The notes: generated from the letters alone by a model not told the origin. A stretch of DNA of 62,377 nucleotides, filler included, from 5 parts of 5 records of this genome joined end to end with filler, not necessarily neighbours in it, one strand, 5' to 3'; shown: positions 13,774-47,221, counted from the first letter of the whole stretch. Numbers and translations are program-made.

Positions 13774-13873
13774 NNNNNNNNNNNNNNNNNNNNNNNNNNN
13801 NNNNNNNNNNNNNNNNNTTAATTAATTAANNNNNNNNNNNNNNNNNNNNNNNNNNNNNNNNNNNNNNNNNNNN
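13774..13873. other. Artificial contig linker
   Basis: N44-TTAATTAATTAA-N44, stops in all six frames. Confidence 0.99.
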
Positions 13874-14351: not shown

Positions 14352-14476
14352 TCGAGAGAAATGCTGCCAAGGGTGAATTGACCATACACCCGCAAAGAGA
14401 TCTGAACTAAGATCGCACCAATCACAGATTGGGCTGCCAAATGCCGCAGCCCGTCGCGGCGATTGGAAGGATCAAC

Positions 14477-16075
14477 GTGCCAAAGAAAGAACCGACCGAC
14501 AAGATCCTGACCCGCGCTAAAAAAGCGGCCAACGCCGGTGATTTCCAAACCGCAGTTACGGCTTTTGGGCAGGTTCTGGCACGATTTCCATCAAACAAGC
14601 GGGCCTTGCAGGGGTTGGCGGCGCTCAGGGCCACGGCCCTGCCGCAATTGCAAGCCGCTGCGCAACAGGCGCAGGAAGAGCGGCGCTGGTCTGATGCAGA
14701 AGCGCAGCTTCGGGCGGCCTGCCTGCTGGCCCCCGATCACGCCGACATGGGACTTGCCCTTGCCGCCTGCCTCATGGAACAGCGCAAAGCGCCAGCTGCC
14801 CTTGCCGCTGTTCAGACCATTTTGAAGAAGATACCGGATCACCCGCAAGCCTTGAATATACAAGGCGCGGCCCAGCGTCTGATGGGACAGGGCGCGGCGG
14901 CAAAACAAAGCTTTACCGCCGCGCTTGGCGATCCGGTTTGGGATGTTCAAAGTCTCAACAACCTTGGCATTTCCGCCCGCGCCGAGGGCGCCCGCACGGA
15001 CGCGGCCGAGTATTACCGCCGCGCCATCGCGGCTGATCCGGCCAATCCGGCGCTGCATCTCAACCTGTCGCAGGAAACCACCTATTCCGCCGACACGCCG
15101 CACCTGCAACAGATGCGCGATCTGCTGGCCTCTAAGGACAGAAACAACCCGGCGCTGGCCCCGCTGCATTTTGCCCTCTTCAAGGTCTTTGACGATCTCG
15201 GTGAGGCAGATAAGGCCTTTGCCCATCTGGAAAAGGCCAACACGCTGGCCAAGGCCAACCTGCAATACGATTTCCAAAAGGATGCGATCCCCTGCGCCCT
15301 CAGCAAAGTTCTGCTGAAAGAGCCGATACATTCCGCCGAGGTTGCCACCACACAGCGGCCCATCTTTATCACCGGTCTGCCGCGCACCGGCACCACCTTG
15401 GCCGAACAGATCCTCGCTCGGTCAGAAGGCACGCGCCCCTGCGGTGAGCTGACGGTGGTGCAGCTGGCCGTGGTGCGTCTGATGCGCGAGGTGATGGACC
15501 GCCCTCAAAAGGCCCTGACCCAGAGCGACATTGTTGATCTGGGCGCAGAGCTGCGCAGCGGTCTGGCCGAATACGGCGATGGCGCTGCAGTTCTGATCGA
15601 CAAGATGCCGCTCAATTTCCGCTGGATCGGCTTTATCTGTGCTGCATTGCCAGAGGCGCGCATTGTGCATATGTCCCGTGACCCGATGGCCGTCGCATGG
15701 TCGCTGTACCGGCAATCCTTTGACAGTGCGGGCAACGGATTTGTCTATGATCCAAGCGACATTGCCCGGTTTATGGCCCTGCACCGCGATCTGATGGCGC
15801 ATTGGCGCAACTGCTACCCGGACCGTATTTTTGATCTGAGTTACGAGGCTTTGGTATCCGAGCCTGAGACCACAACCCGCGCTTTGGCCACCGCAACGGG
15901 TTTGGACTGGTCCGAGAGCTGGCTTTCGCCTGAAAAGGCCTCTCATCTGGTGCTAACGGCGAGCGCAAGGCAAATTCGCAAGCCGATCTACCGGGACAGC
16001 AATGACCAATGGGCGCGATATGAGGCGCAGCTGGCCCCGATGCGGGCAGTGTTGGTGGCTGCGGGTTTGATCTAA
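14477..16075 (+). CDS. TPR-repeat sulfotransferase
   Basis: TPR N-terminus; PAPS loop IFITGLPRTGTTLAEQIL, DKMPLN, TASARQIRKPIY; GTG start after GGAAGG. Confidence 0.9.
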   Translation: MPKKEPTDKILTRAKKAANAGDFQTAVTAFGQVLARFPSNKRALQGLAALRATALPQLQAAAQQAQEERRWSDAEAQLRAACLLAPDHADMGLALAACLMEQRKAPAALAAVQTILKKIPDHPQALNIQGAAQRLMGQGAAAKQSFTAALGDPVWDVQSLNNLGISARAEGARTDAAEYYRRAIAADPANPALHLNLSQETTYSADTPHLQQMRDLLASKDRNNPALAPLHFALFKVFDDLGEADKAFAHLEKANTLAKANLQYDFQKDAIPCALSKVLLKEPIHSAEVATTQRPIFITGLPRTGTTLAEQILARSEGTRPCGELTVVQLAVVRLMREVMDRPQKALTQSDIVDLGAELRSGLAEYGDGAAVLIDKMPLNFRWIGFICAALPEARIVHMSRDPMAVAWSLYRQSFDSAGNGFVYDPSDIARFMALHRDLMAHWRNCYPDRIFDLSYEALVSEPETTTRALATATGLDWSESWLSPEKASHLVLTASARQIRKPIYRDSNDQWARYEAQLAPMRAVLVAAGLI

Positions 16076-16117: not shown

Positions 16118-17401
16118 TCACCGCACGATAATCGCCCTGAAATCATTGACATTTGTACCCGTAGGACCGGGCGAGAACAGATCATCGCAGGCCTCAAACG
16201 CGCTGAAGGCATCATTCGCGTTCAAATCGGCCCTCGGATCGCGGCCATGCGCGCGCATCCTCTGGCAACTGGCCGCGTCTACAAAGGCACCTGCATTGTC
16301 TTCGGACCCGTCGATACCGTCAGTATCCGCGGCCAGCGCGGTGATCCCCGCGGCCCCCTCCAGATGCAACGCCAGTGACAGCAGAAACTCGGTGTTGCGA
16401 CCACCACGTCCCTTGTGGCGCAAGGTCACTGTTGTCTCCCCTCCCGACAAGATCACAACCGGTTTGCCGAAGGGGTGATCGCGGTCCTTGACCTGCCGCG
16501 CGATGGCCGCATGCATCTGCGCCACCTCCCGCGCTTCGCCTTCGATGGCATCCGACAAGATCACCGCATTCAGCCCGCGTGCCTTGGCCAGCGCCGCCGC
16601 CGCGTCAAGCGATTGGCGTGCGGAGGCAACAACGCGAACAGTATTGTTGGCAAAAACCGGATCATCCGCATGCGGCGCAGTCGCCTGCAGGCTGGCGATA
16701 TGGGCGCGAATGTGATCGGGCATATCAATATTGTAGTGGTCAATCATCGCAAGCGCATCTTGACGGGTCACCGCATCAGGAACCGTCGGGCCGGACGCCA
16801 CCTGCGCAGGATCATCACCGGGCACATCAGATACCACCAAAGACACAACCCGCGCCGGATACGCGGCGGCGGCCAACCTGCCCCCCTTGATCGCGCTCAC
16901 ATGTTTGCGGATCGCATTCATCGCCGATATCGGCGCACCGGAGCGCAGCAAGGCCTGGTTCAGCTCCTGTTCATCCTGCAAAGACATCCCCTCTGGCGGG
17001 GCAGGCAAAAGCGCAGATCCACCACCGCAGATCAATGCGATCACCAGATCCTCTGGCCCCAACCCCGACACAGCCCTGAGCAGTGCCGCCGCCGCATCCA
17101 GCCCCCCTCGATCCGGCACCGGATGCGCCGCCTCCATCACGGTGATCTGATTGCAGGGCACCCCAAATCCGTAGCGCGTGGCAACCACGCCCGTCAGCGG
17201 GCCGGGCCAAAGTTGTTCAAGTGCATTGGCCAATTGCGCGGCGCCCTTACCCGCGCCAACAACCACGGTTCTGCCTTGTGGCGGATCGGGCAAGGCATTT
17301 CGCAGCGCCGTCATCGGATCCGCCGCGCCAACAGCGGCGCCGAACAGCTCAACCAATAGCGCTCTGTCCTTGGCCGCAAGATCAGGCACCGGGGTTGTCA
17401 T
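16118..17401 (-). CDS. Glycerate kinase, MOFRL/TtuD type
   Basis: VVGAGKGA, EAAHPVPD, GGGSALL, IKGGRLA, SDVPGDD, SGGETTV, GGRNTE, DTDGIDG, TGTNVND. Confidence 0.93.
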   Translation of the reverse strand: MTTPVPDLAAKDRALLVELFGAAVGAADPMTALRNALPDPPQGRTVVVGAGKGAAQLANALEQLWPGPLTGVVATRYGFGVPCNQITVMEAAHPVPDRGGLDAAAALLRAVSGLGPEDLVIALICGGGSALLPAPPEGMSLQDEQELNQALLRSGAPISAMNAIRKHVSAIKGGRLAAAAYPARVVSLVVSDVPGDDPAQVASGPTVPDAVTRQDALAMIDHYNIDMPDHIRAHIASLQATAPHADDPVFANNTVRVVASARQSLDAAAALAKARGLNAVILSDAIEGEAREVAQMHAAIARQVKDRDHPFGKPVVILSGGETTVTLRHKGRGGRNTEFLLSLALHLEGAAGITALAADTDGIDGSEDNAGAFVDAASCQRMRAHGRDPRADLNANDAFSAFEACDDLFSPGPTGTNVNDFRAIIVR

Positions 17402-18158
17402 CCACGGTGCCTGCGACGAATTGGTCAAGGTCTATGATTGCGCCCGTCATCATGCAGGCATCCTTGGACGCCAGAAACGCAACCAAGGCCGCCGGATCTT
17501 CGGGCATCAACAGCCGGCCGAAGGGTTGGCTTGCCCCCACGGTTTCGCGCCAGTTATCGGGCAACCCGTGAACCTTGGTCTGGATTTCCTGCTCACCGGG
17601 GGTCCATGTCCAGCCCAGATTGATGCCCAGCACCCGCACCCGGTCCCGTTTCAGCGTATTTGCCGCGCTTTTGGTCATCGCCACCAGCGCCGCTTTGGTC
17701 GCGGAATAGGCCATCAGGAAGGGCGGGCCGCCATAGGCCAGCATTGATGTAACATTGATGATCACACCGCCTGCCCGCATTTTCGGCGCAACCTGCTGCA
17801 TCAGGAAAAACGGCGCACGCACGTTGATCGCAAACAGCAGATCGAAGGTTTCGGGCGTCGTATCGGCCAAGCCGCCCCGCAGGGTAGAGCCCGCGGTATT
17901 GGCCAGAATGTCGACAGGGCCAATGCCATCTAGCGCGGCGGGAAGATCGCGCATCAGCCCATCTATATCCGCCAGATCCAGCGTCAGCACATCTGCCACA
18001 ACGCCCCTGCCCTTGAGACGGTCCGCCAGATCGGCCATGCCCGCGCCGTTGCGATCAATCAGCAACATGCGCGTGACACCCTCTGCCGCCAAACGTTCCG
18101 CGATGGCCTCGCCCACGCCCTGCGCGGCACCAGTGATGATAGCTGTTTTTTGGGTCAT
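17382..18158 (-). CDS. Short-chain dehydrogenase/reductase
   Basis: TGAAQGVG, NTAG, YSATK catalytic motif. Confidence 0.92.
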   Translation of the reverse strand: MTQKTAIITGAAQGVGEAIAERLAAEGVTRMLLIDRNGAGMADLADRLKGRGVVADVLTLDLADIDGLMRDLPAALDGIGPVDILANTAGSTLRGGLADTTPETFDLLFAINVRAPFFLMQQVAPKMRAGGVIINVTSMLAYGGPPFLMAYSATKAALVAMTKSAANTLKRDRVRVLGINLGWTWTPGEQEIQTKVHGLPDNWRETVGASQPFGRLLMPEDPAALVAFLASKDACMMTGAIIDLDQFVAGTVDDNPGA

Positions 18159-18170
18159 GTCATTTTTCCT

Positions 18171-19046
18171 TTAACCGGCAAAGCGGGGTTCAGGCAGGCC
18201 CGTCACGCCCAACCCATCAATTCGAAAGGTTGCGCCGCGCAGCGGGCCATCGCCGGGATGCCGGGGCAGCGGCGGTTCTGCCATAGAGGTCACAAAAAGC
18301 GTGTCGAGCTGTGGGCCGCCAAAGGCAAGGCTGGTGATCTTGCACACCGGCATTTCAATCACGCGGTCGATGCTGCCATCTGGTGCAAAGCGGTGAATGC
18401 GGCCATCAAAGACGCAGGCCGACCAAACATATCCTTCACTGTCCACAGTTGCCCCATCCGGCGCACCGCCCCTGTCGTCAGGCAGGGCTGCAAAGGTCCG
18501 GCTGTTGCTGGGATCGCCCGTTTCAGGGTCATAATCATAGGCCCTGATCTTGCCCGTAAAACTGTCGGCAAAATACAGCGTGTGCCAATCGGGCGAAAAG
18601 CACGGGCCGTTTGAACAGATGATATTGTCCTCCAACCGGTGCAGCGACAAATCCGGGTCAAGCCGCCACAACGTGCCTGTTGGATCAGTTTCGCCCATGT
18701 CCATGGACCCGCACAGGAAACGGCCCGCGCCATCGACTTTGCCATCATTCAACCGGTTGCCCGGCCGGTCCGGTTCAGGATCAACGATATGGCGCAGCTC
18801 TCCGCTATCGAAATCAAGCGCATGAAACCCGTCTTGCAGGGCGACAATCGCCCCGCCTGCCCGGCGCAGCGCCATGGATCCAATCGCCGACGGAACCGTC
18901 CATGCCGCCATCTCGCCGCCCTGTTCGGTACAGCGAAAGATCCGGCGGCCAAGGCTGTCGATAAACCAAAGCCGCTGGCGCTCAACATCCCAAATCGGGC
19001 CTTCGCCAAGCAGAGGTTTGACATCACATAGAACCGAGATTTTCAT
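18171..19046 (-). CDS. SMP-30/gluconolactonase-family sugar lactonase
   Basis: LGEGPIWD, RLNDGKVD, SNGPCFSPD, PDGATVDSEG, FGGPQLDTLFVT. Confidence 0.93.
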   Translation of the reverse strand: MKISVLCDVKPLLGEGPIWDVERQRLWFIDSLGRRIFRCTEQGGEMAAWTVPSAIGSMALRRAGGAIVALQDGFHALDFDSGELRHIVDPEPDRPGNRLNDGKVDGAGRFLCGSMDMGETDPTGTLWRLDPDLSLHRLEDNIICSNGPCFSPDWHTLYFADSFTGKIRAYDYDPETGDPSNSRTFAALPDDRGGAPDGATVDSEGYVWSACVFDGRIHRFAPDGSIDRVIEMPVCKITSLAFGGPQLDTLFVTSMAEPPLPRHPGDGPLRGATFRIDGLGVTGLPEPRFAG

Positions 19047-19984
19047 CAGAAATTCACTTCGTTCGCGCCTTTGAGCCCAAGGATCGAACGGGCCTCATCC
19101 GGTGTTGCATGGCTCAGGCTAAGACCCGACAGGACATCTTTGACCTTTTCGATCTGCTGGGCACTGCTGGTGGCCAGTTGCCCCGGCCCCGCCCAAAGGG
19201 AATCCTCAAGCCCAACCCGCACATGGCCGCCCGTTGCCGCAGCAGTGGCCGCAATGCGCAACTGGTTGGAACCGGCCCCAAGAACCGACCATTCATAATC
19301 ATCCCCGAGCAATCTGTCAGCCGTGCGGCGCATCATCATCACATCCTCCGGGTGCCCACCAATACCGCCAAGCAGACCAAACACCGATTGCACAAACAAC
19401 GGGCCTGATACCTTGCCGCGCCCTTTCATGTGGGCCAGCGTATAAAGGTGACCAATATCATAACATTCAAACTCGAACCTTGTGCCATTTGGACCGCAAG
19501 TGTCGAGGATATGTTCGATATCTTTGAAAGTGTTGCGGAACACCACGTCGCGGGAGTTTTCCAGATGTTCGTTTTCCCAATCGCGTCCCAGATCGGGGAA
19601 ACGCGATTGCATCGGATAAAGCCCCATGTTCATCGACCCCATGTTCAGCGATGAAAGCTCTGGTGCGAAATGGGCGGAGGGGCCAACACGTTCGTCCACT
19701 TTCATGAAGGGGCTGCCGCCGGTGGTGATGTTGATCACCGCGCCGGTTTCTTTAAGCGCAGGCAGAATGCGGCCAAAGGCTTCGACCGTTTGGTCCGGTC
19801 TGCCGGTTTCGGGGTCACGGGCATGGACGTGCAGAATGGCCGCCCCTGCCTCGACCGCGCGGCGGCCTTCGGCGATGATTTCCTCTGGTGTCACTGGCAA
19901 ATAGGGCGACATCCCAGGGGTATGGATGGCCCCGGTCAGGGCGCAGGTCACAATCACGGTTCCGGTTTTTTGTCGAGCGGTCAT
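19046..19984 (-). CDS. Beta-keto acid cleavage enzyme (BKACE/Kce, DUF849)
   Basis: IVTCALTG, AGAAILHVHARD (Zn), SLNMGS, FEFECYD, HVRVGLED; start placed at ATG 19984. Confidence 0.93.
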   Translation of the reverse strand: MTARQKTGTVIVTCALTGAIHTPGMSPYLPVTPEEIIAEGRRAVEAGAAILHVHARDPETGRPDQTVEAFGRILPALKETGAVINITTGGSPFMKVDERVGPSAHFAPELSSLNMGSMNMGLYPMQSRFPDLGRDWENEHLENSRDVVFRNTFKDIEHILDTCGPNGTRFEFECYDIGHLYTLAHMKGRGKVSGPLFVQSVFGLLGGIGGHPEDVMMMRRTADRLLGDDYEWSVLGAGSNQLRIAATAAATGGHVRVGLEDSLWAGPGQLATSSAQQIEKVKDVLSGLSLSHATPDEARSILGLKGANEVNF

Positions 19985-19988
19985 AATC

Positions 19989-20918
19989 TTAACTTTCTTT
20001 TTCTTCTCCGACGAACTTGGCCAGTTTGGCCAGTCTGTCGTCGCGCCAGTTGCTACGCGTTTTTCTGTCATACCCCTGAAGCGCGTTGATCACGCTGTCA
20101 GATACCGGCCCGGACCAGTCCGTACGGCCAGGGCGATGCGCCCCGATCCGGTCATAGGCTGGTCCGTAACGGTCAATGAAATCCGCAACCCCGCCGGGGG
20201 CGTTGAGATCAATTGTTTCAAATGGCCCCATGAACACCCAGCGCCGCGCCAGCCCATCCCGCATTGCGGCGTCTACATCCTGCGGGCTGGCAAGACCCTG
20301 ATCCACAAGGGCAAAAGCTTCATCCAAAATCGCCCCCTGAAGGCGGTTCATGATGAAGCCTTCCACCTCACGCAGGGTGCGGATCGGTGTTTGCCGGATC
20401 GCTTGCATCAACCGGGTCGTGGTCTCCATTGTCTCAGAAGACGTCAATGGACCGGGTACCAATTCCACAGCCGGGATCAGATGCGGCGGGTTCAAAGGAT
20501 GCGCCACCAAACAGCGGTGCGCGCCCTCCAACCCTTCGGTGAACTGCGATGGCATCAACGCCGAGGTCGAGCTGGCGATCACCGCATCCCGAAGAGTGGC
20601 CCGATCCAGATCAGCAAAGATGCCGCGCTTTATCTCGACGTTTTCAGGTGTGTTTTCCTGCACATAGCAGACGCCGTCCACCGCATCCTCCATGGACGCT
20701 GCGCTGCGAATGCGGGCACAGACCTCTGCCCCGTTTTGCCCCGACAGCAGATCAAGCTCCTCAAGCGATCCGCACGAGCGGGCGATCTGGTCATGGGCGG
20801 CCTCCACCGCCCCGGCTTGGGTGTCGAACAATGCGGCATTGTACCCTGCGCGGGCAAAGGTAATGGCCCAGGATTGGCCAATCAAACCAGCCCCGATAAT
20901 GGCAATATTGCGGTTCAT
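19989..20918 (-). CDS. 3-hydroxyacyl-CoA dehydrogenase-like protein (lambda-crystallin/L-gulonate or carnitine 3-dehydrogenase subgroup)
   Basis: GAGLIGQSW, VQENTPE, ASSTS, VAHPLNPPHLIP, GFIMNRLQ, MGPFETIDLN. Confidence 0.9.
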   Translation of the reverse strand: MNRNIAIIGAGLIGQSWAITFARAGYNAALFDTQAGAVEAAHDQIARSCGSLEELDLLSGQNGAEVCARIRSAASMEDAVDGVCYVQENTPENVEIKRGIFADLDRATLRDAVIASSTSALMPSQFTEGLEGAHRCLVAHPLNPPHLIPAVELVPGPLTSSETMETTTRLMQAIRQTPIRTLREVEGFIMNRLQGAILDEAFALVDQGLASPQDVDAAMRDGLARRWVFMGPFETIDLNAPGGVADFIDRYGPAYDRIGAHRPGRTDWSGPVSDSVINALQGYDRKTRSNWRDDRLAKLAKFVGEEKES

Positions 20919-21961
20919 GCGTGCCGTACCCCGGTTGCAGGATCAAAAAGCAGCATGCCGCCCGGATCAACCGTGATCTCGACCTCGGCCCCCAGTCGCA
21001 GCGGGCTGTCGCCGTCGGTGATTGCGCGGACCTGCGCCCCGTCCCGCCCCGCCGTGACGATCGCAAAAGCGCCCAGCCGTTCAATGTCAGTCACAGGGGC
21101 CGAACAGGGGCCCTTGCCGCCGGGGGTCAGGCGCACCGCCTCAGGGCGCAGCGCCATCAGGCATTCGCCCTTGGCCTTTTCGCCCGCCAACCGGCCCAGT
21201 GCGAATTTCATTCCGTCGCTATCCCCAATGGCAGGCAGCACCGAAATCCGCGGTGCGCCAACCAATTCAGCAACGGCAAGTGTGGCCGGATCACCGTAGA
21301 CATCCTCGGGCCGCCCAACCTGTTCGAACCGCCCTTCATTGAGGATGGCCAGTTGATCGGCCACAGCCATCGCTTCATCGCAGTCATGAGTGACATAGAC
21401 AAAGGTCTTGCCCAGCTCCGATTGCAGGCGTTTGAGTTCCAGTCGCATGTCATCGCGCAACCGCGCGTCCAACGCGGCAATCGGTTCATCCATCAAATAA
21501 GCGCCCGCATCGCGCACCAAAGCACGGCCAATCGCAACCCTTTGCCGTTCACCGCCCGACAGCGCGGCCGGCTTTTTCGACAGGATGTGACCGATGTTCA
21601 AAACCCCAGTCAGGCCATCAATGCGTTTGTCGATCTCCGCCTGATCCGTGTTGCGGCGGCGCAGAGGAAAGGCAATGTTTTCATAGGCGGTCAGCTGGGG
21701 AAACAGTGCCAAATTTTGAAACACCATGCCCAAATTCCGCTCGCTTGGCAGGGCGCGGGTGACATCAACGCCGTCGATCAGGATCTGCCCTGCGTCCACC
21801 GTTTCAAGCCCCAGCAACAGCCGCAGCAGCACCGATTTGCCCGATCCCGGCGGGCCAAAGATTGAGGTGAACGACCCATCCTTCAGGGTCAGGGATACAT
21901 TGTCGAGGGCGGGCACGCCGCCATAGGCTTTTGACACGCCCAATATCTGAATTTCAGCCAT
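20915..21961 (-). CDS. Carbohydrate ABC transporter ATPase (MalK-like)
   Basis: GPPGSGKS, LSGGERQR, YLMDEP, TOBE-like C-terminus. Confidence 0.93.
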   Translation of the reverse strand: MAEIQILGVSKAYGGVPALDNVSLTLKDGSFTSIFGPPGSGKSVLLRLLLGLETVDAGQILIDGVDVTRALPSERNLGMVFQNLALFPQLTAYENIAFPLRRRNTDQAEIDKRIDGLTGVLNIGHILSKKPAALSGGERQRVAIGRALVRDAGAYLMDEPIAALDARLRDDMRLELKRLQSELGKTFVYVTHDCDEAMAVADQLAILNEGRFEQVGRPEDVYGDPATLAVAELVGAPRISVLPAIGDSDGMKFALGRLAGEKAKGECLMALRPEAVRLTPGGKGPCSAPVTDIERLGAFAIVTAGRDGAQVRAITDGDSPLRLGAEVEITVDPGGMLLFDPATGVRHA

Positions 21962-22510
21962 CTAGTCGTCCTCCCCCAGCCGCAATCGCAGCCCTGTGTC
22001 CGGGTCAAAAAGGTGACATTTCCCAAGATCAAACGAGACATTGGCCGCCTCGCCGGGCCGCAAGGAAACGGTGCGGTCAAAGCTGCCGACAAAACGGGTT
22101 TGTCCGGTTGAGAAATGAACAAGCTTGCGGCGGCCAACCAATTCGACCAGGACCACTTGCGCGGCCAAGGTGCCCGCGTCCGGCTGGTCTGAAATGCGCA
22201 GATGCTCTGGCCGGAAGCCAAAGGTCAGCGCCGCGCCGCCATGGGTCCGCGCCTGACTGGACAGGCGGTCATCCAGCGCAACCGCATCTGCCTCCCGTCC
22301 GGCCAGATCCGCGAACATCGCGCCATCGCGTTCTGCAATCCGCGCCCGCACCAAGTTCATCGAAGGTGCCCCGATGAACCCGGCAACAAAGGTGTTTTCA
22401 GGTCGCGAATAGATGTTCTCGGGCGTGTCGAACTGCTGCAACATCGCCTGATCCATCACCGCAATCCGGTCGGCCAGCCCCATCGCCTCGATCTGGTCGT
22501 GGGTGACGTA
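21962..22510 (-). CDS. Second MalK-like ABC ATPase, C-terminal part
   Basis: [19 protein letters not shown]...[12 protein letters not shown]; 5' truncated by the linker. Confidence 0.9.
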
Positions 22511-22610
22511 NNNNNNNNNNNNNNNNNNNNNNNNNNNNNNNNNNNNNNNNNNNNTTAATTAATTAANNNNNNNNNNNNNNNNNNNNNNNNNNNNNNNNNN
22601 NNNNNNNNNN
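22511..22610. other. Artificial contig linker
   Basis: N44-TTAATTAATTAA-N44. Confidence 0.99.
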
Positions 22611-28680: not shown

Positions 28681-28780
28681 NNNNNNNNNNNNNNNNNNNN
28701 NNNNNNNNNNNNNNNNNNNNNNNNTTAATTAATTAANNNNNNNNNNNNNNNNNNNNNNNNNNNNNNNNNNNNNNNNNNNN
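28681..28780. other. Artificial contig linker
   Basis: N44-TTAATTAATTAA-N44. Confidence 0.99.
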
Positions 28781-47089: not shown

Positions 47090-47189
47090 NNNNNNNNNNN
47101 NNNNNNNNNNNNNNNNNNNNNNNNNNNNNNNNNTTAATTAATTAANNNNNNNNNNNNNNNNNNNNNNNNNNNNNNNNNNNNNNNNNNNN
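47090..47189. other. Artificial contig linker
   Basis: N44-TTAATTAATTAA-N44. Confidence 0.99.
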
Positions 47190-47221
47190 CAAGCCAGAAG
47201 CATCAAGCCGGATCAGAAGCA

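Follow-up and report, generated by a model that had tools for sequence, protein, structure and literature searches.

Organization of the operon

This study concerns a cluster of seven genes at positions 16118-22510 of a 62,377-nucleotide stretch of DNA (the window), which includes a gene for a β-keto acid cleavage enzyme (BKACE). Gene positions and strands in the window were taken from a listing of open reading frames (ORFs), and families were assigned by Pfam and NCBIfam profile searches; the gene maps of related loci rest on tblastn and Pfam. All seven ORFs lie on the minus strand, with ends that overlap or almost touch, and are given here in the direction of transcription:

21962..22510, minus strand: second MalK-type ABC ATPase (ATP2), C-terminal half, 182 codons, open to the contig end (OB_MalK 33 bits, TOBE_2 36 bits)
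20915..21961, minus strand: complete MalK/UgpC-type ABC ATPase (ATP1; ABC_tran 110 bits, TOBE_2 31 bits)
19989..20918, minus strand: lambda-crystallin-like 3-hydroxyacid dehydrogenase (HCDH; 3HCDH_N and 3HCDH)
19046..19984, minus strand: BKACE (PF05853, 327 bits)
18171..19046, minus strand: SMP-30/gluconolactonase-family lactonase (SGL, 281 bits)
17382..18158, minus strand: short-chain dehydrogenase/reductase (SDR) oxidoreductase of the PRK06198 type (adh_short; NF004847, 272 bits against a cut-off of 240)
16118..17401 (or 17428), minus strand: MOFRL/DUF4147 glycerate-kinase-like protein, the last gene (DUF4147 270 bits, MOFRL 128 bits)

ATP2 and ATP1 abut with a gap of 0 nt, ATP1 and HCDH overlap by 4 nt, HCDH and BKACE are separated by 4 nt, BKACE and the lactonase overlap by 1 nt, and 12 nt separate the lactonase from the SDR. 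The kinase starts at ATG 17401 or TTG 17428, either of which overlaps the SDR stop, giving an overlap of 20 or 47 nt. For the BKACE, the likely start is ATG 19984 rather than 20071, because the NCBIfam model alignment begins at residue 35 of the longer ORF. The initial annotation of this DNA had described a tightly coupled minus-strand operon of seven genes in a Rhodobacteraceae-like contig that lacked a solute-binding protein. The ORFs, families and coupling bear this out, with the correction that the second ATPase is only a C-terminal fragment.

That fragment ends at an artificial linker, which also bounds the other end of the operon's contig:

22511..22610, no strand: artificial contig-joining linker, not biology (N run, TTAATTAATTAA, N run)
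13774..13873, no strand: the same artificial linker

The linker occurs four times in the window, against 0.01 copies expected by chance (13774-13873, 22511-22610, about 28681-28780 and about 47090-47190), and we therefore read the window as five contigs joined end to end. The operon's contig spans 13874-22510 (8.6 kb) and is 94.7% identical at the nucleotide level to Sulfitobacter mediterraneus DSM 12244 over 6,637 nt, so the Rhodobacteraceae assignment holds for this contig. Since the operon runs into the linker, the second ATPase is cut by the end of the assembly and not by biology. For the same reason, the absence of a binding protein and permeases is an assembly gap rather than a biological feature: the binding protein is absent from the contig, as the annotation had noted, and present in relatives.

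Conservation in related genomes

We compared the operon with a family sample of 401 genomes (numbered G) and with a set of 80 related BKACE loci (loci are numbered L). A BKACE of at least 76% identity was found in 4 of the 401 genomes, namely S. mediterraneus (G302), G369, G364 and G440. The order ATP2-ATP1-HCDH-BKACE-lactonase-SDR is kept in the loci of the last three (L129, L130 and L131) and in a Hyphomicrobiales metagenome-assembled genome (MAG; L002), and L003 and L004 contain the same four enzymes with different transporters. Among the 80 related loci, HCDH is present in 37 and the lactonase in 20.

Upstream of the ATPases, the relatives encode two BPD_transp_1 permeases and a 536-residue SBP_bac_1 binding protein, and a LacI regulator lies near the operon:

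L129 13666-15276, minus strand: 536-residue CUT1 binding protein, 82% identical between a Sulfitobacter-like genome and the Hyphomicrobiales MAG

The CUT1 binding protein, the permeases and the LacI regulator indicate a sugar-like substrate. For this binding protein, a search of solved structures at E ≤ 0.001 and an NCBIfam search both came back empty and gave no clue to its ligand. After the SDR, the relatives carry a second, xylF-like ABC system, with an xylF-like pentose binding protein in L129, L002 and L004. We conclude that the genes in the window are probably the distal two-thirds of a sugar-uptake and catabolism operon from an S. mediterraneus-like bacterium.

In the type strain DSM 12244 itself (L001 1-187, G302:C15), the HCDH gene is broken at about codon 137 by a 187-nt sequence. 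Of the 8 genomic copies of this sequence, at least five lie at a contig end, and it is probably the end of an insertion sequence (IS). The DSM 12244 assembly also lacks the upstream part of the operon (window 20509-22510). With HCDH cut and the upstream part absent, the operon looks decayed in the type strain.

Another, widespread cluster shares the operon's four enzyme families, with HCDH, BKACE, an SMP-30 lactonase and an SDR of another kind, and includes a GntR regulator and a sugar ABC system of the CUT2 type:

L079 2477-11850 (Mesorhizobium sp. STM 4661): CUT2-type BKACE cluster; similar in L053, L060, L064, L067, L069, L077 and L078

Our literature search returned no experimental description of this CUT2-type cluster, and nothing on an operon of the present type in Rhodobacteraceae.

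Identity of the BKACE

The BKACE matches PF05853 over the full length of the model (326.8 bits, with a cut-off of 24.8; positions 2-274 of the 274 in the model), and its best solved relatives are 3e49 (2e-129) and BKACE15 (8rio/8rip; 7e-124, full length). The HxH (LHVHARD) and GLED stretches are identical in the alignment with BKACE15 8rip and 3e49, and we take these residues to be the zinc-binding site. BKACE15 has been shown to bind zinc and to catalyze the cleavage (PMC11961710). The protein falls below the lysine Kce equivalog model (202.3 against 382), and the Kce structure 2y7d is only a distant match (1e-37, compared with 2e-129 for 3e49).

The BKACE does pass NF053538, the equivalog model for the triacetate lyase of the phloroglucinol pathway (482.9 against a cut-off of 430). 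As a control we scored nine other BKACEs (from L079, L172, L175, L033, L013, L017, L054, L129 and L004), and all nine also passed, with scores of 474-559 bits. The seven that belong to other clades, where the neighbors are TTT, HAAT, CUT2 or unknown, score 504-559; the two from the operon's own clade score 474 and 509. Thus, every 310-residue BKACE in the control set passes irrespective of gene context, and for this reason we reject the triacetate label as evidence and regard the model as over-broad. NF053538, which carries the name "3,5-dioxohexanoate:acetyl-CoA acetone transferase," will probably over-call triacetate lyases in automatic annotation.

In a 139-row tree, the operon-type BKACEs form one clade of their own (SH-aLRT 97-99), while elsewhere members of the same subfamily adjoin TTT, HAAT and CUT2 transporters. 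Searches for a named counterpart gave the following results: the names among the top 120 matches of a protein search were all generic, Deinococcus was the only one of 14 named control genomes with a BKACE, and the named homologues in a plasmid search were at most 67% identical, none of them corresponding to the published deoxyribonate genes. In a genus search centered on a Paraburkholderia MAG (33 genomes, 6 with a match), the published BKACE-transporter-HCDH-SDR order was absent from the stored flanks, and twenty 13-kb regions around distant BKACEs yielded no HCDH.

The other enzymes and the transporter

HCDH passes NF004783 (411 against 347) and fails both carnitine dehydrogenase models (178.3 against 592 and 168.6 against 414). 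Its best solved relatives are the lambda-crystallins 3ado (2e-70) and 3f3s (1e-63), with 3-hydroxybutyryl-CoA dehydrogenases matching at 5e-26 or weaker. Judged by these similarities, HCDH groups with the free-acid L-gulonate 3-dehydrogenase rather than with CoA-ester dehydrogenases; lambda-crystallin is the L-gulonate 3-dehydrogenase of the mammalian glucuronate pathway (PMC12435205). In the operon, HCDH directly adjoins the BKACE, and it lies near a BKACE in 59 of the 136 distinct loci scored, a set in which 61 carry no label and many of those have short flanks. This proximity fits HCDH as the putative 3-dehydrogenase. The same pairing occurs in the carnitine pathway. It is found in the phloroglucinol pathway as well (PMC10470551).

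The lactonase is, by its solved relatives, nearest to sugar lactonases (regucalcin 4gn7, 2e-42; Smp-30/Cgr1 protein 7plb, 5e-42). For the SDR, the best solved relative is 4nim (2e-59), and orthologues of at least 65% identity were found only beside operon-clade BKACEs (4 of the 80 loci, plus L129-L131); it is only 26-31% identical to SDR′, the type found with most of the subfamily's other BKACEs. The complete ATPase scores 319 bits with the UgpC subfamily model, under the cut-off of 432, and has orthologues of 59-78% identity in the same position in four relatives. The second ATPase covers only positions 199-355 of the UgpC model, with full-length orthologues of 51-70% identity in L129, L130, L131 and L002. 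The window therefore holds one whole and one half ATPase of the putative CUT1 importer, the remaining parts being seen in the relatives.

The kinase falls under the cut-offs of the NCBIfam glycerate 2-kinase models (218 against 550 and 172 against 670). S. mediterraneus has two MOFRL kinases, the operon copy being 64% identical to the other, which is unlinked and lies elsewhere, and three relatives have a single copy each that is not linked to the operon. In these four genomes, a search for GarK-type kinases gave none. Recruitment of an extra kinase copy into the operon supports glycerate as a product and is the best single argument for it.

A hydratase-like/Gfo gene pair beside the operon in relatives

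At 4 of 6 related loci, the operon is adjoined by a gene pair encoding a hydratase-like TIM-barrel protein and a Gfo oxidoreductase:

L129 15606-17854: hydratase-like/Gfo pair
L002 782-3015: hydratase-like/Gfo pair
L131 6036-8280: hydratase-like/Gfo pair
L004 6504-8745: hydratase-like/Gfo pair

The TIM-barrel protein matches the solved 2-hydroxy-3-keto-glucal hydratase 8ro4 at 3e-140, and the Gfo oxidoreductase matches 3v5n at 4e-149. In L129, L131 and L002, the pair and the binding-protein gene are divergent, and in L004 the pair adjoins HCDH. Among the Rhodobacteraceae sampled, G369, G440 and G364 are the only genomes with the operon-linked hydratase copy (85-100% identity), and they are also the sole sampled carriers of a BKACE of at least 76% identity besides S. 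mediterraneus G302; 199 other genomes have only a copy of 57-63% identity. The pair is a distinct paralogue: operon-bearing genomes also retain the generic copy. Between a Sulfitobacter-like genome and the Hyphomicrobiales MAG, the binding protein, permeases, hydratase and Gfo protein are 81-89% identical.

The operon's contig does not contain the pair. DSM 12244 has no hydratase homologue at E ≤ 1e-5, and L003 has none within 21 kb. From the case of DSM 12244 we conclude that the four-enzyme core can stand alone. An eliminase gene was not seen in the annotated loci, nor was a glycoside 3-dehydrogenase seen beside the pair. In Agrobacterium, a hydratase/Gfo pair converts the elimination product of a 3-keto-glycoside to glucose (PMC10628242). 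The pair suggests that the true feedstock in the relatives may be a glycal-like compound or a 3-keto sugar remnant instead of free deoxyribose.

A candidate route for 2-deoxy sugars and its alternatives

We propose, at a little under even confidence, that the operon burns a 2-deoxy sugar, most simply 2-deoxy-D-ribose, by oxidation and CoA-dependent cleavage. The proposal builds on what is observed at the locus: the families present, their order and tight coupling, a four-enzyme core that is conserved and a kinase that is an extra copy. With substrates and reactions that we infer for every step, the route would run as follows. A CUT1-type ABC importer with two different MalK-like ATPases would take in the 2-deoxy-aldose. 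The SDR, as a putative sugar 1-dehydrogenase, would oxidize C1 to give the lactone, the SMP-30 lactonase would open the lactone to the 2-deoxy-aldonate, and the lambda-crystallin-like HCDH would oxidize the 3-hydroxyl to give a β-keto acid. The BKACE, predicted to be zinc dependent, would then move the C1-C2 unit onto acetyl-CoA, yielding acetoacetate and glyceryl-CoA. CoA would be lost through an enzyme not encoded at the operon, and the dedicated MOFRL kinase would finally phosphorylate glycerate. BKACE chemistry needs an unsubstituted C2 (CH2). Combined with an acyl-CoA product of three carbons, this requirement points to a 2-deoxy-pentonate, or 2-deoxy-pentose, as the starting material. 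The deoxyribose mapping is the chemically simplest and most economical reading of the gene content, and we regard the operon as a plausible variant of a pathway known from soil bacteria, not a new kind of system.

This mapping was put forward in the initial annotation, which assigned five enzymes to the steps of oxidative deoxyribose breakdown, took the glycerate kinase as a pointer to a C5 2-deoxy acid, and considered that the route might have been assembled independently. The families are indeed present and the scheme is chemically coherent, with nothing in it that is specific to deoxyribose. The kinase retains some value as a pointer through the extra paralogue in S. mediterraneus, but it is linked to the operon in only 1 of the 80 related loci and in none of L129-L131, and so it cannot define a clade-wide pathway. 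Independent assembly is doubtful, since the HCDH-BKACE-lactonase module is widespread and the Paraburkholderia cluster has an HCDH-family gene too (PMC6365646).

Several points weigh against free deoxyribose as the substrate. No feature of the operon is specific to it, and it gives no account of the hydratase/Gfo pair. The BKACE subfamily is not isofunctional, as the varied transporter neighbors (TTT, HAAT and CUT2) indicate, and the SDR′ that is the usual partner of this subfamily is absent, a distinct SDR standing in its place. The kinase is tied to the operon in S. mediterraneus only. In the type strain DSM 12244, the operon is interrupted by the probable IS element. For a CUT1 importer with a 536-residue binding protein, a glycoside or oligomer is a more usual substrate than a pentose. 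Finally, the comparison with the published PS417_07250/07245, BPHYT_RS04760/04775, H281DRAFT_00641-00644 and A6X2V8 is by description rather than by sequence.

The leading alternative keeps the same four-enzyme chemistry and applies it to another sugar-derived compound supplied by the hydratase-like/Gfo pair, such as an anhydro-sugar, or a 3-keto-glycal or 3-keto-sugar that remains when a glycoside or deoxynucleoside is cleaved by oxidative β-elimination; import of the glycoside or glycal would then fall to the CUT1 system. The strong matches to 8ro4 and 3v5n, the placement of the pair beside the binding-protein gene or HCDH, the confinement of the 85-100% identical hydratase copy to operon-bearing genomes of the Rhodobacteraceae sample, and the 81-89% identity of the transport and pair proteins across a Sulfitobacter-like genome and a Hyphomicrobiales MAG all argue for it, as does the comparable Agrobacterium pair, which yields glucose from an elimination product (PMC10628242). 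However, the enzyme core exists without the pair in DSM 12244 and, within 21 kb, in L003, the annotated loci show no eliminase gene, reduction of a 3-keto sugar followed by re-oxidation at C3 looks wasteful, and the co-occurrence may merely reflect transfer of a single island. On balance we consider this alternative rather unlikely, though a serious contender. A more specific version for the relatives' locus, which we hold to be improbable, is a route not previously described in which a β-elimination remnant is hydrated, reduced, re-oxidized at C1 and C3 and then split in a CoA-dependent step; it could start from a 2-deoxy-glycoside, possibly a deoxynucleoside.

Lower still do we rate a uronate-cycle-like route, in which an ordinary aldonate or lactone is converted to a 2-hydroxy-3-keto aldonate, as in the animal L-gulonate pathway, and the BKACE acts non-canonically. 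SMP-30 has a role in the mammalian glucuronate pathway, and both the best solved relatives (regucalcin/SMP-30 and lambda-crystallin) and the xylF-like pentose binding protein after the SDR in three relatives are in keeping with such a route. However, a substrate with a 2-hydroxyl would make the BKACE yield 2-hydroxyacetoacetate, a BKACE product for which we know of no precedent, and the operon encodes neither an enzyme to handle it nor any decarboxylase. We think it highly improbable that the operon serves phloroglucinol- or triacetate-type degradation, with the SDR as phloroglucinol reductase, HCDH as 3-hydroxy-5-oxohexanoate dehydrogenase and the BKACE as triacetate lyase. The published pathway does combine an SDR, an HCDH-like enzyme and a BKACE, with homologous clusters in marine Alphaproteobacteria (PMC10470551), and the BKACE scores above the NF053538 cut-off; but that label is not discriminating, there is no cyclase-family match among the contig's proteins or 10 annotated neighbors in L129, and the transporter, LacI regulator, lactonase and kinase are ill-suited to an aromatic substrate. 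Carnitine or betaine breakdown and lysine fermentation, the classical BKACE pathways, were named in the initial annotation among the findings that would overturn its proposal. Beyond the family membership of BKACE and HCDH nothing favors them: the Kce and carnitine dehydrogenase models fail, the Kce structure is distant, and there is no transporter of the betaine type: the ATPases, like the binding protein in the relatives, are of the CUT1 sugar type (with the ligand judged from family), and the LacI regulator and neighbors are likewise sugar-type. We give these pathways a negligible chance.

The function assigned to the operon remains a context-based prediction from a truncated contig of a mixed assembly. 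If oxidation of 2-deoxyribose is the correct reading, BKACE-dependent deoxyribose oxidation would extend beyond plant-associated Pseudomonas and Burkholderia to marine Alphaproteobacteria, in a rebuilt version that uses an ABC importer, a dehydrogenase of the lambda-crystallin type and a kinase from another family, and it would bear on the recycling of dissolved DNA sugar in the sea. It would also suggest a natural role for the lambda-crystallin/SMP-30 pairs of bacteria, and another for a large clade of BKACEs whose members would be named triacetate lyase under NCBI's rules. Were the β-elimination version to hold, marine Roseobacter-group bacteria would possess a kinase-free and aldolase-free route from DNA-derived sugar to acetoacetate and glycerate.

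Other contents of the window

The five contigs of the window stem from at least three organisms, so that the assembly is mixed. Their GC content is 0.60-0.66 for contigs 1 and 2, 0.51-0.53 for contig 3, 0.32-0.39 for contig 4 and 0.51-0.55 for contig 5. Contig 1 is only 67-71% identical to S. mediterraneus, the 35%-GC contig 4 has no close match to S. mediterraneus or to genome G001, and the last contig (47200-62377) matches G001, a genome without a BKACE, at 100% identity. A family search centered on G001 served solely to supply distant BKACE loci. On the operon's contig, a plus-strand gene at 14429-16075 encodes a 548-residue protein in which TPR repeats are fused to a sulfotransferase domain (Sulfotransfer_3, 143 bits); it is convergent with the kinase gene and lies 42 nt from the kinase stop. 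The adjoining contig (22657-28622, minus strand, ~52% GC) encodes a Cache_3-Cache_2 chemoreceptor by Pfam and, from translations judged by eye, putative exonuclease III-like, oligopeptidase A-like and FolD-like proteins, all unrelated to the operon.

Comparison with known systems

The closest described system is the deoxyribose pathway of Price et al. (2019), in which an SDR, a BKACE, a lactonase and a glycerate kinase are backed by mutant fitness data from Pseudomonas simiae WCS417, Paraburkholderia bryophila and Burkholderia phytofirmans (PMC6365646). By families, the operon shares with it a lactonase, a dehydrogenase predicted to form the 3-keto-2-deoxy acid, a BKACE that would release acetoacetate and glyceryl-CoA, and a glycerate kinase, and the Paraburkholderia deoxyribonate cluster also includes an HCDH-family gene. 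A gene for glyceryl-CoA hydrolysis is known neither in the operon nor in the published pathway (PMC6365646). The differences lie in the parts. Uptake would be through a CUT1 ABC system here and is through MFS transporters there; the molybdenum sugar dehydrogenase of the published pathway is absent from the operon, where the PRK06198-type SDR is the sole candidate to open the route; oxidation at C3 probably falls to the lambda-crystallin-like enzyme, not to an SDR as in the published pathway; and the kinase is of the MOFRL rather than the GarK type (PMC6365646). The deoxyribonate cluster of Klebsiella michiganensis likewise leads to glycerate and combines a glycerate kinase with a lactonase and a dehydrogenase of the HCDH family. 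It proceeds by way of CoA thioesters and uses a CoA synthetase and a thiolase, both of which are absent from the operon; as described, it has no BKACE (PMC6365646).

In Clostridium scatologenes, the PGR-DPGC-TfD-TAL cluster also places an HCDH-like dehydrogenase for a free 3-hydroxy acid next to a BKACE, together with an SDR, and the NCBIfam model that the operon BKACE passes is named after TAL, a model that fits the nine other BKACEs too. Unlike that cluster as described, the operon has no cyclase-family hydrolase and has a lactonase, a kinase and a sugar-type transporter and regulator (PMC10470551). The 3-keto-glucoside salvage genes of Agrobacterium tumefaciens comprise AtOGE, AtHYD and Gfo (PMC10628242; PDB 8ro4), and the operon's relatives have a close paralogue pair of the hydratase and the Gfo reductase; in contrast to the Agrobacterium salvage genes, the relatives' pair has no eliminase or glycoside 3-dehydrogenase seen beside it. 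In mammals, SMP-30/regucalcin acts as the lactonase and lambda-crystallin then as the 3-dehydrogenase of a free sugar acid, the order predicted for the operon. Whereas the animal glucuronate pathway then decarboxylates the 3-keto acid through C11orf54, the operon would follow with a CoA-dependent cleavage enzyme.

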